A stretch of 61,101 nt of DNA, filler included, from Circinaria calcarea (Eukaryota), in NCBI GenBank assembly GCA_051942165.1. It is 9 parts of 9 records of this genome, joined end to end, with 100 filler letters (N's around TTAATTAATTAA, not from the genome) between each part and the next. Parts side by side here need not be neighbours in the genome. Positions count along the whole stretch, not along the records: positions 40,847 to 47,536 come from JAVECS010001516.1; 8 more parts are not named here. One strand, 5' to 3'. How positions within the stretch are numbered: the stretch's first letter is position 1; every line of letters starts with the position of its first letter. The notes under the pieces are model-generated. The model saw only the letters and a list, made by a program, of their open reading frames with translations, was not told where the DNA came from and ran no database searches. Shown here one piece after another: positions 6,720 to 54,421 of this stretch. The position numbers and the translations under genes were made by a program.

Positions 6720-6819
6720 NNNNNNNNNNNNNNNNNNNNNNNNNNNNNNNNNNNNNNNNNNNNTTAATTAATTAANNNNNNNNNNNNNNNNNNNNNNNNN
6801 NNNNNNNNNNNNNNNNNNN
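6720..6819. other. Artificial contig linker
   Basis: 44 N + TTAATTAATTAA (stops in all six frames) + 44 N. Confidence 0.98.
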
Positions 6820-13530: not shown

Positions 13531-13630
13531 NNNNNNNNNNNNNNNNNNNNNNNNNNNNNNNNNNNNNNNNNNNNTTAATTAATTAANNNNNNNNNNNNNN
13601 NNNNNNNNNNNNNNNNNNNNNNNNNNNNNN
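13531..13630. other. Artificial contig linker
   Basis: N-run with central TTAATTAATTAA. Confidence 0.98.
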
Positions 13631-20340: not shown

Positions 20341-20440
20341 NNNNNNNNNNNNNNNNNNNNNNNNNNNNNNNNNNNNNNNNNNNNTTAATTAATTAANNNN
20401 NNNNNNNNNNNNNNNNNNNNNNNNNNNNNNNNNNNNNNNN
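20341..20440. other. Artificial contig linker
   Basis: N-run with central TTAATTAATTAA. Confidence 0.98.
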
Positions 20441-27149: not shown

Positions 27150-27249
27150 NNNNNNNNNNNNNNNNNNNNNNNNNNNNNNNNNNNNNNNNNNNNTTAATTA
27201 ATTAANNNNNNNNNNNNNNNNNNNNNNNNNNNNNNNNNNNNNNNNNNNN
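27150..27249. other. Artificial contig linker
   Basis: N-run with central TTAATTAATTAA. Confidence 0.98.
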
Positions 27250-33954: not shown

Positions 33955-34054
33955 NNNNNNNNNNNNNNNNNNNNNNNNNNNNNNNNNNNNNNNNNNNNTT
34001 AATTAATTAANNNNNNNNNNNNNNNNNNNNNNNNNNNNNNNNNNNNNNNNNNNN
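33955..34054. other. Artificial contig linker
   Basis: N-run with central TTAATTAATTAA. Confidence 0.98.
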
Positions 34055-40610: not shown

Positions 40611-40746
40611 GGTCTTGAAGGAAGGTCTTGAAGGAAGGTCTTGAAGGAAGGTCTTGAAGGAAGGTCTTGAAGGAAGGTCTTGAAGGAAGGTCTTGAAGGA
40701 AGGTCTTGAAGGAAGGTCTTGAAGGAAGGTCTTGAAGGAAGGTCTT
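40611..40746. repeat. Perfect 13-bp tandem repeat (GGTCTTGAAGGAA), about 10.5 copies, running off the contig end
   Basis: Directly visible; a degenerate unit precedes it. Confidence 0.95.
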
Positions 40747-40846
40747 NNNNNNNNNNNNNNNNNNNNNNNNNNNNNNNNNNNNNNNNNNNNTTAATTAATT
40801 AANNNNNNNNNNNNNNNNNNNNNNNNNNNNNNNNNNNNNNNNNNNN
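40747..40846. other. Artificial contig linker
   Basis: N-run with central TTAATTAATTAA. Confidence 0.98.
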
Positions 40847-41330
40847 AAAATCGGTTATATAAATTTTTAATTAAATAAATTTTTAATTTTCGAATAAATT
40901 ATCGTCGAATAAGTTTTTTATTATTAAATAAATTAATTTTTATAATTAAATAAGTTTTTTATTCTCGGATAAATTATCGCCGGATAAATTTTTTATCGCC
41001 GGGTAAGTTTTTTATAATTAAATAAATCTTTTATTTTCGAATAAATTATCGCCGAATAAGTTTTTTATTAATAAATAAATTAATTTATAAATTATATAAT
41101 TATAAGCTGAACTGGTAAGCTACAGCCTCAAAGGCATTTTTATAATATATTATGTCGCTCGGAATAGCAGGGATATATAATTATTACTCCTTTAACTGTT
41201 TCACTCCGGGCCTATATATTCTTATGGCCCAGTCGAGCTTATAAGTTTTCTATATAAGCGTTCTAAAACTCAAGTTAATAGCCTCTCCCCAGAAATCTAT
41301 AGCTGCCTAATCTACGTCACGCACGACCAG
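40847..41330. repeat. Very AT-rich, probably RIP-mutated repeat/transposon remnant
   Basis: Degenerate tandem units like ataaattatcgccgaataagtttttt; TpA excess and CpA/TpG scarcity by eye. Confidence 0.7.
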
Positions 41331-43212
41331 ATCTATAAAATGCGTTGAACAAGGTCCCCCGTGCAGCTCAGTTGACCGAGGGTTTCTAGCTCGAGAGGGT
41401 GCCCAGATGCGACACTGAGGTCGGTCTCAGCCGTGTTCCTAACGATCGCAGGGTTTCTCGATTGCTGTGTAAGTTTGCGATGCAAGGTGAGACGGTAAAG
41501 GTCCAGGCCGGGCTTGTTGTAGATCGTAATGGTTGCCACGCGGGATTTCTTGATGGGAGGCTCGAAGAGCTAAAATCCCTTGTGAGATTCTTTTTGACCA
41601 AGATCCTAGTAACGCTCAAATTATACTTCGCGGAAGAAAATTGAAATTTCCGGGTAGAGAGCATATAGGGATGATCTAAGTGGACTTTTCTGCGTTAGGA
41701 AACACTCTTTTATATCGTCGCAATCTGTCACTCCCTACGCAGAGTTCAGTGGATAGATCGATTGTAAATAACTGATATCAATTAACCCTAGGCCTCACGA
41801 CTTCTATCACGTGACACTCCTATTCCTCCTAGAGCATGTGATTTATAACAATTTTATGAATGTTTATGAACTGTCAACACTGCACTTACTAAGCGAGAGC
41901 CGGCGCCATCAAATCATTTTCTGTGCATGGAAATATTCGAGAGAGTTTTATCGTCGAGCTGACCTTAGATAGAGGTCCGGTTGCCGAAAGCTTACCGATA
42001 ACGCTAGCATTTGTAAATCTGTACATGTGGAACATGACTGCGATCCCACAGAAAAACAAGAGGACCAGTGATGCTGAGAGGATCGGTATCAGTAACACCG
42101 AATCACCCAACGCGTGATATGTGGAGGACTGAAAGCATTCTCACATCTCATTGTGACTGACAAGTACTACTTGAAATGTGAAAGTGCCTCTAAGCTGATA
42201 TTTGAAATTGAAGGCGCTCCAAGACAACCTGCAGATATGGGGAGGGTACACACTAGCAAACATAAAGTAGTCTTCAACAAATCTTCAAGACATCGAAGCT
42301 ACACATATGAGCGCTTATTCCGAACTGCAGCAAGATATTGCGCTAGTCGTCTTCTTCGCTCGAAACAATTTTGAAAACTTATAAGACAGAATCAATGGGA
42401 TATGTTTCGCGCAAGCGGTGTTTCAAAACGAAAAGGTATTCAACCAGAAGGGTAAGTGAAATTCCCTTGGCACGCCTTTACTTCACTCGAGACTTAACAG
42501 AACGACTTGAAAACCTCAGCTGTGGCGCCTCGGCGTCAACCATACAGACCATGAGGTTTGCTCTGCACGGAAATCTGTCCAGAATATTCTTCTCCTCCTG
42601 AACGCCAGAACATGCGACAGCCTAGGAGAGCTTCCTCGCCTCTCACTAGCAGAGTCAAAGATGGAGATACGTCGCTAGCCAACCCTCTACGATGCCCTCT
42701 CGAGGCGCAGGGAGAATCGAGGTAATCGAGGGAATAATGCGAATTGCAAGAGAGACGGCTGAGAGGCTCTGGAGGTTATATGAATCCGGACGCTAAACTA
42801 GCTGCGGAGATTTCCCGTCCGCTTAACCCGATTGGGGAAGGTTCTCCCGTGAGTTTCAATGCTCTGTTGTGTAAACGCTCTGGATTCGCTGAGCTGATAT
42901 CTGAAAGCGTTTGACCAGAAAATGCCTTGTCTACGTGCAGGTGTCTGATTTGGCTGTTCTACTCTGAGCTGAGCAGCAGTGGTGAGTTGTGGTAAGATAC
43001 TTGGCTGCTGAAGGGACCACTAATGCGCCTTAGAGATACGGCTCAAGAGTTGCACTGCCGCCTGATTGCTTTGTCCGAGAGACAGCCAGGCAGCAGTACG
43101 GGTCCGTGTAGAATCATCCTCTTCCTCCTGGTCCATCACCTTAATATCGTACCATTACTCTACTTTACCATCAAATCACTTTATCGAAGCAGGTAAAGTC
43201 TGTCCAACAATC

Positions 43213-44022
43213 ATGAGCTCCTCTACCCCTTCTGGCACTGATCCGATACAATCCCTCGTTCGCAACCTAGCCGGTCTTTCATTGACCCTTATCGACGACT
43301 CTTCTCTGCCGCAGTTCAACTCTCTCTTCAAGAACCACCTGGAAACCCGCTTTAGCGGATACCGAGGCGGCGCGGTCTACGAACCTTCCCATCATCCTTC
43401 GGGAGGTTTCATCAGCTCTGTGGCTTTTGAGGATTACAATAAAAACCACTACCTCGTCAAAACACCCCATGGAACGAAGTATCAGAACATGAAACAGGCG
43501 AACGGTGCGGCTTCTAAAGTGGCTTATGAGATGCTCAAGGCTGGGCAGAAACCTCCGCTCGCCAGCTCGGTAGTGCAGACTGGGGAGATTATCTCTACCA
43601 CTACGGGGGATGACTATCGTATCCAGAAACTGGAAATCATCATCAAGCACGTCATTCAGGACCGCGAGCTCGCCCTCCGCGCGCTGAGGCACTCATCCGT
43701 CGGGCTCAACAACCATGACGCCTTAGCTTTCCTCGGCGACGCCATCATTGGCTATTTGATGGCCCTGGAAGCCTTCACCACCGCCCCGAATGCGACCGTG
43801 CAAGACCTACACTACACTCGGAGTCGACTGGTTGAAAACGACGAGTTTCAGCGTATTGCACAAGAGATCGGGTTGGCAGAATTGCTCGAGGTTGGCGGTG
43901 GGACCAACGGGCCGATGACGGGTAAGAAGATGGTCGCGGACATGTTTGAAGCCGTCATTGCAGTGCTCTGGTTGGAAGGCGGCGAGGAAGCCGTGCTCAG
44001 GTTCTGGCGCAGCTGCCACTGA
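43213..44022 (+). CDS. Intronless RNase III-domain protein (269 aa) with N-terminal dsRBD-like domain
   Basis: ALRHSS, HDALAFLGDAII (RNase III signature), RSRLVEN and KMVADMFEAVIAVLWLEGG; the N-terminal half fits a dsRBD pattern (FNSLF..VYE..GFISSV..NMKQANGAASKVAYEML). Confidence 0.88.
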   Translation: MSSSTPSGTDPIQSLVRNLAGLSLTLIDDSSLPQFNSLFKNHLETRFSGYRGGAVYEPSHHPSGGFISSVAFEDYNKNHYLVKTPHGTKYQNMKQANGAASKVAYEMLKAGQKPPLASSVVQTGEIISTTTGDDYRIQKLEIIIKHVIQDRELALRALRHSSVGLNNHDALAFLGDAIIGYLMALEAFTTAPNATVQDLHYTRSRLVENDEFQRIAQEIGLAELLEVGGGTNGPMTGKKMVADMFEAVIAVLWLEGGEEAVLRFWRSCH

Positions 44023-44046
44023 TGGATGATTGAAACTTAGTAATTG

Positions 44047-44173
44047 AGCATGGGGACCGCGCAGGAACAGCGACCGGGGAGTAGGGCTGTGCCATGTGGT
44101 GAAGGTATTCTGACCTTCACCGCATGGCACAGCCCTGCTAAACCGGACGTAGCTCCTGCGCGGTCCCCATGCT
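44047..44173 (+). other. Long inverted repeat / RNA hairpin (~60 bp stem, 6-nt loop) just 3' of the RNase III gene
   Basis: 44047-44066 is the perfect reverse complement of 44154-44173; 44080-44106 pairs with 44113-44139 (two G-U); loop ATTCTG. Confidence 0.93.
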
Positions 44174-44699
44174 TTGTTACGAAGCCTCAGGCTTCCATTC
44201 AAACGGAAAGGTGGAATCTACGGTTCGGAAGACTGCGGTTTGTTGAGACGGTTTTTATGAGAACAGCAATGGCAAACTCAATACGCTCATTATTTAGTTA
44301 CTAGTAGATCAGAGTACTAGAGAATTTTAGTTTTGCTGTCCTGCGAACATTATCGATTTCTGGATAGAATAAGATACACTCACTAACTTCACGATCCAGT
44401 GTCAGCTTTTCTCTGATATCCCACTGTGCTGTCATTGCATACATACTATTGCCGGCCAACTCTCTTCCTGTGATCGGTATGCATGACGGTATCTCAACTC
44501 AGTCCCGTAGTTACCCGCCGAGCGGGTGGAATCCTCCTTTTAGTCCACCCTAAACTTCTAGTATAGATATCGGACCTCCACAGTCGTAAACTTATAAGAC
44601 ACCACAAATCAAAACCTATACTCCGATATTGTTGCTTACTCCGTAAAGCATCTTTAGCTTTACTAGTACCTCGCATTACTTCTTTATCCATGAAAGGTG

Positions 44700-45296
44700 A
44701 TGAATGCGAAGCATTATCCAATTGACGTTGTCCCAGAGGGCGTGTCCCTGTATGTCATCAACCACTTCAGCTCATGGCCATGGTGTACCCAACTTCTCAA
44801 CAATCCCGCCTTGATTCCTATACAAACAACTTCGCGAACAATTCAGCCAGGCGACGAAAATTCTTTCCTGGGACGAACCCTACTCACCGAGGATACCATT
44901 CCAGCATGCCAGTCTTTCTACATGCCACCATCATCGCAGCAAAATCCTACGCTCACTGGCGCACCCAATCTTGGACAACTGCAGACTTTATACTCGATTG
45001 GTTCAGGGCTCAACGGTCATGAGCACACCGGTCATGGTGGTCTCGTGGCCTTATTGTTAGATGAGATCATGGGGATGATGGTGAGGCTACATCCCGCATT
45101 CAAGAATCCTTACACCGTGACACTCCGGGTGGTCTATAAGAAAGCATTCCCTACTCCTGGTGTGGTTCTTTGCAGAGGCTGGTGTACGAGGCTGCAAGGT
45201 CGGAAAATAGAGATGTCCAGCGCTGCTGAGGACGGCACAGGAGTCCCAATTGCGACAGGAGAGTGTTTGTTTGTGGAGGCTAAGGGAAAGCTCTGA
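44700..45296 (+). CDS. Hotdog-fold thioesterase (PaaI/THEM4-like)
   Basis: GLNGHEHTGHGGLVALLLDE motif; YTVTLRVVYKKAFPTPGVV; GRK; GECLFV. Confidence 0.9.
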   Translation: MNAKHYPIDVVPEGVSLYVINHFSSWPWCTQLLNNPALIPIQTTSRTIQPGDENSFLGRTLLTEDTIPACQSFYMPPSSQQNPTLTGAPNLGQLQTLYSIGSGLNGHEHTGHGGLVALLLDEIMGMMVRLHPAFKNPYTVTLRVVYKKAFPTPGVVLCRGWCTRLQGRKIEMSSAAEDGTGVPIATGECLFVEAKGKL

Positions 45297-45590: not shown

Positions 45591-46535
45591 CTAATAAACC
45601 GATAAAACATCAGAACTTCTGCAGAGGGGCAAGAGGAAGATAATGGTAATCCATAGACTCCATAACTTCCAGGTCAGCTCATCCGATCCTACATTCCTCA
45701 AGAGCAATACTCTGAAGACGACAATTCCTCCAAAAATGACGGGTGCTAAGAATCCATAAACATTCAAGGCCCAAACAGCTGGGCATAATAACGACCAAAT
45801 CGTGATCGAAAAAGCAATGGTCCATCTGGCGATGCCATCCCCCCAAATAATTGGTGCTGTTTCCCTACCACGAGCCCGGTCTCCGGCTTGATCTCTCAGG
45901 TCTTGTACGTGGAGGGTTGTAAAGATTAATACAGATTTTAAAGCAAGCCAACGGTAGCCTACCCTATTAAGGGTAACACCTTCGCCACTTGCCACAAGCG
46001 TCGATCCAGCACTCCAACAGACGAGTCCGAGAGCATTCAGAAGATTTCGAACGATGTAATTCTCAGAGCCACCGAGTTCGTTATACATCCAGCTTAAGAC
46101 CATTGAAATCGACGTCTCTTTGCTTCCTCCAAGGTAGAGGGTGGAGATAAATACGGACGGAACAACTGCGAGGAGTAACCAGCGGGCTTGAGTTATCGTG
46201 AGTCTTCCTGATGGCAGAGGACGCCAAGCTTTGTTCACAGAATCTTCGATAACAGAGCTTGGCAAACGCTGATTCGCTATTGTAAAGGCCAAAATATTCA
46301 ACCATACCCATAACAGAACTTGAGGTAAACGACCAATGATATCTTTACCATTTGGATTTTCGTTTGTGGTTAAGGCCGGTCCAGAGAGAGCGCTGAATAT
46401 GCCGAAGGCTACCCAAGGGTAAACTATTGTTGTATGCTCACTACACGTAAAAAGCCAAAGAGTCTGAAGATGAAAAATCGCCTCTGTAACCGGGAAGAAT
46501 AAATATTTATTAAAATATCTGGTGGTATTCTGCAT
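45591..46535 (-). CDS. UbiA-family membrane terpene cyclase / prenyltransferase (Fma-TC-like)
   Basis: HLQTLWLFT, NQRLPSSVIEDSVNKAWRPLPSGR, WMYNELGG and QDLRDQAGDRARGRETAP motifs; multiple TM helices. Confidence 0.88.
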   Translation of the reverse strand: MQNTTRYFNKYLFFPVTEAIFHLQTLWLFTCSEHTTIVYPWVAFGIFSALSGPALTTNENPNGKDIIGRLPQVLLWVWLNILAFTIANQRLPSSVIEDSVNKAWRPLPSGRLTITQARWLLLAVVPSVFISTLYLGGSKETSISMVLSWMYNELGGSENYIVRNLLNALGLVCWSAGSTLVASGEGVTLNRVGYRWLALKSVLIFTTLHVQDLRDQAGDRARGRETAPIIWGDGIARWTIAFSITIWSLLCPAVWALNVYGFLAPVIFGGIVVFRVLLLRNVGSDELTWKLWSLWITIIFLLPLCRSSDVLSVY

Positions 46536-47321
46536 TTGTTCAGCAAATCTATCATCATTCGCGATACTTTCAACTTACATTTCCGCATATATTGTAGCCT
46601 ACAACAACAGGCATGCTGGATCTGTGGCTGTGTATTTGAGGGTCGTTATTCTCTGTGATGGGCATTCTGGTCACATTAAGGCTTCGCAACATTCCGTCTT
46701 AATAGTTAATATGCTCGAGGTTCAGCTCTGGAATTTTCTATTGCCTATTGCTCAGCTTGTGATTCGACCGCATTCTACATTTCAGTATTACTTAAGTTAA
46801 GCTGCTTCTAGGCATCATCGGCCTTGTACAAAACATGAAAGACAGAGAGACGCCCCTCTTCTGCATTACTGTCTGCAAGGATGTCGATAAATGCATTGGC
46901 TGATAAGATCTGCATGCCGTAAAGCCAAATCAGTCAAGGATACATCAGCTACGGATTAGACAGGTTCGAATCCGATTGGATGTTCTTAGTCACCTGTTGT
47001 ATGCTTACCCCCTCTGCAAACTACAGGATTATTGCGCTAGTATAATAAGTGCTTTGCTTGCGGCGTAAACCGAGCCGTACTCAGCATGCTATGTATGTGT
47101 TACCCGAAAAAATTATTGACTTAAGAAATGCGGGGTATTCTCGGACAGGTGTGTGGTACTAATAGTAATACGTTGGTTGTAACAGGAATAATTATCACAT
47201 GTAAAGAAAAATTATGATATCATTAGATATCCTAGTAAATCTTACATTAACTATCGATCTGATTTCTTCGACTTCTACATACTTTGATTCCTTCGTGTAT
47301 GTGCGTGTAACGACTTGGAAA

Positions 47322-47536: not shown

Positions 47537-47636
47537 NNNNNNNNNNNNNNNNNNNNNNNNNNNNNNNNNNNNNNNNNNNNTTAATTAATTAANNNNNNNN
47601 NNNNNNNNNNNNNNNNNNNNNNNNNNNNNNNNNNNN
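47537..47636. other. Artificial contig linker
   Basis: N-run with central TTAATTAATTAA. Confidence 0.98.
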
Positions 47637-54321: not shown

Positions 54322-54421
54322 NNNNNNNNNNNNNNNNNNNNNNNNNNNNNNNNNNNNNNNNNNNNTTAATTAATTAANNNNNNNNNNNNNNNNNNNNNNN
54401 NNNNNNNNNNNNNNNNNNNNN
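54322..54421. other. Artificial contig linker
   Basis: N-run with central TTAATTAATTAA. Confidence 0.98.

Follow-up and report, generated by a model that had tools for sequence, protein, structure and literature searches.

Can a small RNase III that carries its domain for binding double-stranded RNA (dsRBD) in front of the nuclease domain, with an Ala in place of one metal-binding carboxylate, still act as a double-stranded RNA (dsRNA) endonuclease? This question is raised by a single-exon gene of the lichen-forming fungus Circinaria calcarea, which encodes a protein of 269 amino acids (aa) and lies in a 61,101-nucleotide stretch of DNA (the window) from the assembly GCA_051942165.1. Our analysis leans, by a modest degree, to the reading that the product is a dsRNA endonuclease that acts as a homodimer, is restricted to one lineage, and has its domains in permuted order and an atypical active site of three carboxylates, where the homodimer comes from structure prediction and the cleavage and cellular role are proposed by us. 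The coordinates of the features are collected in Table 1.

The reading frame is open from 43066, and within the open frame there is no ATG upstream of the start codon at 43213. In the alignment, the open reading frame (ORF) is colinear with 11 homologues of 185-334 aa, without gaps that would hint at introns. The frames are intact across 12 clusters at 45-90% identity, and 39 columns are invariant, including those of D176, D243, and E246. Because of these intact ORFs and invariant columns, purifying selection is evident. On the sequence evidence, the ORF is a real gene.

The C-terminal part of the protein carries the nuclease domain. Pfam assigned PF00636 to aa 170-257 (57.7 bits, cut-off 27, expectation value (E) 2.2e-15) and PF14622 to aa 150-265 (50.9 bits, cut-off 35, E 2.2e-13), which gives one RNase III domain per chain and only 4 residues after it. 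Foldseek matched the model to the nuclease domains of bacterial RNase III, with E 6.5e-6 and a template modelling (TM) score of up to 0.78 on the target. At the level of the model, the protein thus has the all-helical fold that marks the RNase III superfamily.

The active site is close to that of known enzymes except at one position. When the protein was aligned by HMMER with Drosha and with RNase III of E. coli, the first Glu of the signature N-E-R-L-E-F-L-G-D fell on D169, the second Glu (E41 of E. coli, E40 of Aquifex) on A172, and the Asp on D176. The catalytic Asp and Glu fell on D243 and E246 of the motif ADMFEA, E246 being at the position of a Gln in the Drosha construct 6lxd. Three of the four metal-binding carboxylates of the superfamily are therefore present: D176, D243, and E246. 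In a hidden Markov model (HMM) alignment of all retrieved domains, the column equivalent to E41 was Ala in 14 out of 14 family rows, all 14 of which kept D243 and E246. The same column in the 176 non-family domains had Glu in 166, a gap in 4, Ala in 4, and Lys and Thr in 1 each. An earlier note on this DNA had read the signature as DALAFLGD in place of ERLEFLGD, and direct reading of the sequence agrees. It had also taken the catalytic residues to be intact, which is right for D176, D243, and E246 but not for the fourth metal ligand, replaced by Ala172.

The region in front of the nuclease domain is a dsRBD by its predicted fold. The full-length AlphaFold model, built from a 12-row alignment, had a mean predicted local distance difference test (pLDDT) value of 67.4, and its predicted secondary structure over aa 29-109 (helices H, strands E) was H29-45, E54-60, E66-73, E79-83, and H93-109, that is, alpha-beta-beta-beta-alpha. 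When aa 20-118 were modelled alone with the family alignment, AlphaFold gave a mean pLDDT of 84.9 and a predicted TM score (pTM) of 0.75. An exhaustive VIA-align search over 48,161 PDB representatives listed 50 rows with Z from 9.8 to 6.2. Of these, 45 were dsRBDs, named as such or belonging to RNase III, Dicer, or DGCR8, and the dsRBD matches had a root-mean-square deviation (rmsd) of about 2-3 A over 60-81 residues; dsRBD1 of HYL1, for instance, matched with Z 9.4 and rmsd 2.0 A over 69 residues. The remaining 5 rows were DHX29, HEN1, T7 Gp1.2, and two mitoribosome chains. The top rows of Foldseek were likewise dsRBDs.

Profile comparison points the same way. Between the N-terminal block of the family and a profile of 70-odd bacterial RNase III dsRBDs, hhalign gave an alignment of 62 columns that runs from helix 1 through helix 2 (P 1.3e-4), and the control alignment with a bacterial catalytic-domain profile gave P 0.23. 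Two features of the family consensus, the His of the loop between beta1 and beta2 (HPSGGF) and the K/R-K pair that opens helix 2 (RKKLAxGAAA), are in register with the bacterial dsRBD profile. We infer that the domain likely binds dsRNA. In the linker that joins it to the nuclease domain, P114 and P115 (Pro-Pro) are nearly invariant in the family. The arrangement described in the earlier note, an intronless 269-aa ORF with a dsRBD-like domain before a single RNase III domain and nothing after it, was therefore recovered from the ORF, Pfam, and the homologue alignment, and the structure prediction that the note had proposed as a check of the N-terminus returned a dsRBD fold.

Structure prediction also suggests that the protein pairs with itself. 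Prediction with two copies gave a score of 0.63, whereas the best-scoring of 3 controls had 0.00; at least 60% of the contacts were common to the three runs, and the pLDDT of the partner was 74. Of the proteins solved as same-chain pairs, 20 out of 30 reached the mark used for calling a homodimer, and of those solved as single chains 1 out of 23 did so; for eukaryotes the figures were 17 out of 29 pairs and 0 out of 30 single chains. The predicted interface comprises aa 165-166, 169-178, 180-181, 183-185, 187-188, 192-196, 199-200, 203, and 250, which are the signature-motif helix and its neighbour, an interface of the kind expected of RNase III. Because RNase III dimers have already been solved, this result may reflect only likeness to, or memory of, those structures.

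From these features we propose the following mechanism. The protein would consist of a dsRBD, a flexible linker of about 20 residues, and one C-terminal RNase III domain, an order permuted with respect to class 1 enzymes. Two copies would most likely pair via the signature-motif helix, as bacterial RNase III does, to form one processing centre. Held by the two tethered dsRBDs, a dsRNA helix would lie across this centre and have one strand cut by each subunit. With three of the four carboxylates kept and the fourth an invariant Ala, cleavage would be expected with altered metal dependence or at a lower rate, and not a loss of activity. In favour of a working site, D176, D243, and E246 are invariant across 45-90% identity, and without a bound metal one would expect acidic residues that face the RNA to drift.

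Several observations weigh against this reading. Aquifex RNase III coordinates two Mg ions through E40, D44, D107, and E110, and Ala172 takes away one ligand of these ions (PMC3867540). In the available part of a deep mutational scan of the E. coli enzyme, no substitution was tolerated at E41, D45, or E117 (PMC10037077). The Ala is a serious change, because the position is that of a Mg ligand and is intolerant to substitution in E. coli. As to the N-terminal domain, Pfam (including dsrm, PF00035) gave nothing for aa 1-135 at E<=1, the Foldseek E-values were weak (best 0.029, none <=0.001), and the hhalign probability to the bacterial dsRBD profile was just 53%. Confident models of this domain were obtained in only 3 out of 5 cases (pLDDT 84.9, 81.8, and 81.7; the others 50.6 and 48.1). 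The window protein has Met for the first Lys of the KK pair (NMKQ). RNA binding is also not assured, because several of the top structural matches are dsRBDs for protein-protein contacts, namely TRBP dsRBD3, Loqs dsRBD3, DCL4 dsRBD2, and Staufen dsRBD5.

The main rival explanation draws on the same change in the active site. The protein might be a catalytically dead or nearly dead pseudo-nuclease, whose dimeric scaffold and dsRBD would bind, sequester, or mark dsRNA without cutting it. We regard this as rather unlikely, though to be taken seriously: the equivalent of E. coli E41, one of the four Mg ligands (PMC3867540), is Ala in 14 out of 14 family rows, E. coli tolerates no substitution there, and the nuclease-null E. 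coli mutant E117K still binds dsRNA specifically, the last two points being made in the available part of PMC10037077. What speaks against a dead enzyme is the family-wide invariance of D176, D243, and E246, which is hard to explain without metal binding. Mini-III enzymes, whose signature according to the earlier note likewise has Ala at this position, are active without the Glu. The degenerate signature would also fit a heterodimer in which the protein is the non-catalytic or half-site partner of another fungal RNase III, such as Rnt1 or a Dicer-like protein, and the parts of PMC9508840 and PMC6800513 that were available provide precedents for such heterodimers. We consider this improbable, since three of the four carboxylates are kept and the prediction favours a symmetric homodimer (0.63 as against 0.00 for the best control), a score that may itself reflect memory of solved dimers. 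That the ORF is spurious, or a decaying pseudogene, is hardly credible. A metagenome relative found at two loci (L001 and L002, equivalent to P0025) is decayed, so the family can decay, but 12 clusters, with identities as low as 45%, keep the whole frame intact, their columns are strongly conserved, and both domains have confident fold predictions.

The protein belongs to a very small family. Among 5.8 billion clusters, a word-indexed search turned up 12 close relatives with E from 1e-154 to 6.7e-33 and 45-90% identity, beyond which there was only ordinary RNase III at E >= 1.7e-7. An exhaustive phmmer search of 1.84 billion representatives gave 5 matches below 1e-30 and then a gap to 6.4e-17, and no match outside the family reached query residues before 104. 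A profile search with the family alignment returned the identical 12 at E <= 3.5e-53, followed by a gap to 8.4e-20. The only named members are from Lignoscripta atroalba (Trapeliales) and Circinaria calcarea (Pertusariales), both annotated as 'hypothetical protein' and both from species of Ostropomycetidae, Lecanoromycetes. The N-terminal helix-strand-strand part is present in the deepest branch as well (the P0013 cluster, in which P0191 is full length). A decayed copy of the family is seen in the fragments P0025 and P0028 and at the metagenome loci L001 and L002; it keeps the dsRBD strands and the C-terminal half of the nuclease domain and has lost dsRBD helix 2, the linker, and the signature half. 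Apart from the two occurrences of this copy, the metagenome scan yielded one bacterial-type locus (L003) and nothing else.

Searches in other directions gave no further members. Among longer relatives (472-2000 aa) there was only one unrelated bacterial-type match, which is weak evidence. Two-motif scans, which could miss diverged relatives, gave 89 pattern matches in the viral collection and 98 in the prokaryote collection, with no relative in either. The nearest clusters in the ESM Atlas were ordinary RNase III and dsrm families and were uninformative on domain order. Extensions are present in 18 neighbouring proteins; Pfam recognised a dsrm in 14 of them, in each case behind the nuclease domain. 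The dsRBD-first order is therefore specific to the family within its sequence neighbourhood. The literature search, which did not cover subscription papers, found no description of a small dsRBD-then-RNase III protein or of a lichen RNase III. Together these searches show a small, closed, lineage-restricted family, so far seen in lichen-forming Ostropomycetidae only, which is in line with the accessory enzyme proposed in the earlier note and not with a well-described, widely inherited family.

Comparison with known enzymes shows where the protein differs from each of them. Like bacterial class 1 enzymes (E. coli Rnc and Aquifex aeolicus RNase III), it has one RNase III domain and one dsRBD in a chain of about 230-270 aa, is predicted to form a homodimer via the signature helix, and finds there the best fold matches of its nuclease domain, at 23-31% identity. 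Unlike them, it has the reversed domain order with nothing after the nuclease domain, a linker of about 20 aa as against about 7 aa (from the available part of PMC3867540), and an Ala for the E41/E40 ligand, and it is eukaryotic and restricted to lichen fungi. Its score with TIGR02191, the class 1 equivalog model, was 72.1 bits, well below the cut-off of 166.25. It shares with Mini-III (class 4) the character of a small enzyme with a single RNase III domain, homodimeric in Mini-III according to the available part of PMC5141509 and by prediction here. Mini-III has no dsRBD in the accounts available from PMC3867540 and PMC5141509, whereas the lichen protein has a predicted dsRBD fold at aa 29-109, and no Mini-III chain was among the matches of our PDB sequence searches with the lichen protein.

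Eukaryotic enzymes offer closer parallels in some respects. DrnB of Dictyostelium has an N-terminal dsRBD before its RNase III domains, a 'shuffled order' with respect to Drosha, as described in the available part of PMC5056781. It is a large protein (189 kDa as a green fluorescent protein (GFP) fusion) with two RNase III domains that form an intramolecular pseudo-dimer, whereas the lichen protein has a single domain and must dimerise; the likeness shown is one of architecture and not of specific sequence kinship. Enzymes of the Drosha/Dicer type include the best PDB sequence match, RIIIDb of Drosha, and group with the family in the careful tree described below, but the lichen protein has a single RNase III domain where that type has two, and is without PAZ, helicase, and C-terminal dsRBD. 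R3B2 of Mucor is also a fungal, lineage-restricted, non-canonical RNase III; according to the part of its description that was available it cuts single-stranded RNA, and it is likened here by that description. Because DrnB already has an N-terminal dsRBD, the novelty is limited to the order in a small single-domain enzyme. The inverted order pointed out in the earlier note is therefore new for a small single-domain enzyme and has a precedent among RNase III enzymes at large.

The origin of the family was approached by sequence search and by trees. In the PDB, the nearest sequences were RIIIDb of Drosha (E 1.2e-14) and bacterial RNase III (1.8e-10 to 1e-6), and yeast Rnt1 was far (E about 0.01). 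A quick tree of 117 domains recovered the family as one clade (support 100) on a long stem (1.61), which stood in a polytomy within the half that holds mostly class-1-like sequences; the branch between the halves had a support of 44%. A careful tree was made from 62 rows, thinned by random sampling and with ten long-branch proteins left out. In this tree the family joined a eukaryotic two-domain (Dicer/Drosha-type) set that includes a chytrid and an amoebozoan protein, with a support of 95/72 on a branch of just 0.064. The tree thus leans weakly towards eukaryotic Dicer/Drosha-type domains, in a grouping of poor support.

Outside the family, Ala at the E41 position was found in P0134 (Parachlorella kessleri GAB4816645.1), in both domains of P0048, an unnamed tandem duplicate with two RNase III-like domains, and in the degenerate domain P0046_1. 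P0155 (Micractinium tetrahymenae KAL4421411.1) has Thr there. Both named species are green algae of the Trebouxiophyceae, the class of many lichen photobionts. The shared Ala of P0134 and the two P0048 domains is set against two differences: the Trebouxiophyceae proteins have Glu for Asp at the D243 position (AEAFES/AEAYEA), and no dsRBD was recognised in them. In the best tree, the algal proteins form a separate clade (99/98), and the family is not their sister group; forcing the two together cost 6.14 log-likelihood units and was not rejected (approximately unbiased (AU) test, p 0.362). An algal origin thus finds no support in this tree. The suggestion of the earlier note that the gene was possibly acquired was not borne out, as the trees do not settle the origin and the viral and prokaryote pattern scans gave no relative. 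The roles that it names, in antiviral defence, RNAi modulation, or small-RNA processing, are candidate roles for or against which the sequence data do not speak. The permuted order could plausibly have come about if an RNase III-dsRBD gene was duplicated in tandem and the pair then lost its two ends.

The genomic surroundings of the gene are limited to its own contig. The window consists of 9 contigs of about 6.7 kb chained by 8 N44-TTAATTAATTAA-N44 linkers and is not contiguous DNA, so genes on separate segments are not genomic neighbours. The sole true context of the gene is its own contig (40847-47536), which has 6690 nt without any N and a GC of 0.451. The contig before it in the window ends in a tandem 'aaggtcttgaagg' repeat (40700-40746). 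Over about 2 kb upstream of the gene (41100-43200) there was no ORF of more than about 100 codons in any frame, and none was convincing. The adjoining 4HBT thioesterase is of Ascomycota type (Atlas score 0.97). Therefore the contig is fungal, and the RNase III gene lies in fungal DNA. The GC content at third codon positions (GC3) is 0.66 for the RNase III gene as against 0.52 and 0.43 for its neighbours, a small sample in which the UbiA frame may include introns. No Rfam family reached its gathering score on the contig; the top match, mir-938, had 26.9 as against 84 bits and was taken as chance.

Table 1. Coordinates of the RNase III gene, its parts, and the other features (window positions unless a metagenome locus is named).
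Feature	Position	Strand	Remarks
RNase III gene, single-exon ORF, 269 aa	43213..44022	+	ATG to TGA, stop included
N-terminal dsRBD-fold domain, aa 29-109	43297..43539	+	predicted models, fold searches, hhalign
Linker, aa 110-130	43540..43602	+	low confidence, pLDDT <50 for aa 114-129
RNase III catalytic domain, aa 131-269	43603..44019	+	Pfam, PDB sequence matches, Foldseek
Signature motif DALAFLGD, aa 169-176	43717..43740	+	
Ala172 in place of metal-ligand Glu	43726-43728	+	
D243-M-F-E246, second catalytic carboxylate pair	43939..43950	+	kept
Long imperfect palindrome/hairpin, about 177 nt	44022..44198	.	begins at last base of stop codon
4HBT thioesterase gene	44700-45296	+	neighbour downstream of RNase III gene
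UbiA prenyltransferase gene	45591-46574	-	
AT-rich block, short degenerate repeats	40847-41110		left end of the gene's contig; units like 'aataaattatcgccg...'
Perfect hairpin, 32-nt arms, 4-nt loop	47637-47704		very first bases of next contig
Linkers between contigs	6720-6819, 13531-13630, 20341-20440, 27150-27249		
Linkers between contigs, continued	33955-34054, 40747-40846, 47537-47636, 54322-54421		
Decayed family relative	L001:491-1003, same in L002		metagenome contig

An imperfect palindrome follows directly on the gene. Its arms of about 89 nt are about 78% alike, with perfect blocks of 19 and about 26 nt and diverged outer parts. As RNA, the + strand folds with -132.7 kcal/mol (z -16, 0 out of 200 shuffles as good) and the - strand with -126.8 kcal/mol. 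Since both strands fold about equally, it is an inverted repeat at the DNA level, with no evidence for a strand-specific RNA. Neither arm core has another copy in the 61-kb window, no target-site duplication was seen by eye at either candidate boundary, and no such hairpin was found downstream of the decayed metagenome relative (L001/L002). The sole other comparable hairpin in the window, the perfect one at the start of the next contig, is probably an assembly-end artefact. Because its arms have diverged, the hairpin at 44022 is argued to be real and old.

E. coli RNase III regulates its own gene, as the available part of PMC10037077 states. Self-regulation comes to mind when a gene for a dsRNA nuclease has a long dsRNA stem in its presumptive 3' untranslated region (UTR), but an insertion like a miniature inverted-repeat transposable element (MITE) is at least as likely. 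The most far-reaching scenario, which we rate as a long shot, is that a permuted RNase III specific to lichen fungi, which may have arisen when a gene was duplicated and truncated or may have come from the Ala-sharing green-algal partner lineage, would cleave or bind the hairpin of about 85 bp on its own transcript for self-regulation or for the production of small RNAs, in a self-contained dsRNA circuit that might serve symbiosis or act against mycoviruses.

Judged from its sequence and that of its relatives, this protein appears new in that a small RNase III with a single nuclease domain carries the dsRBD in front and has an invariant Ala in the place of a metal ligand. The classes of RNase III rest on domain architecture, and a small dsRBD-first enzyme with a single nuclease domain fits none of those described in the available parts of the reviews. 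If the protein is active, the dsRBD need not be tethered C-terminally for a class-1-like dimer to work, and an enzyme in a eukaryotic setting could do without the E41-type carboxylate, a point of relevance to the two-metal mechanism and to the engineering of dsRNA nucleases. If it is inactive, it would be a clear case of an RNase III pseudo-enzyme that occurs in nature. In lichen-forming fungi, whose RNA biology is almost unexplored, the restriction of the family makes it a candidate lineage-specific factor in RNA processing or defence.

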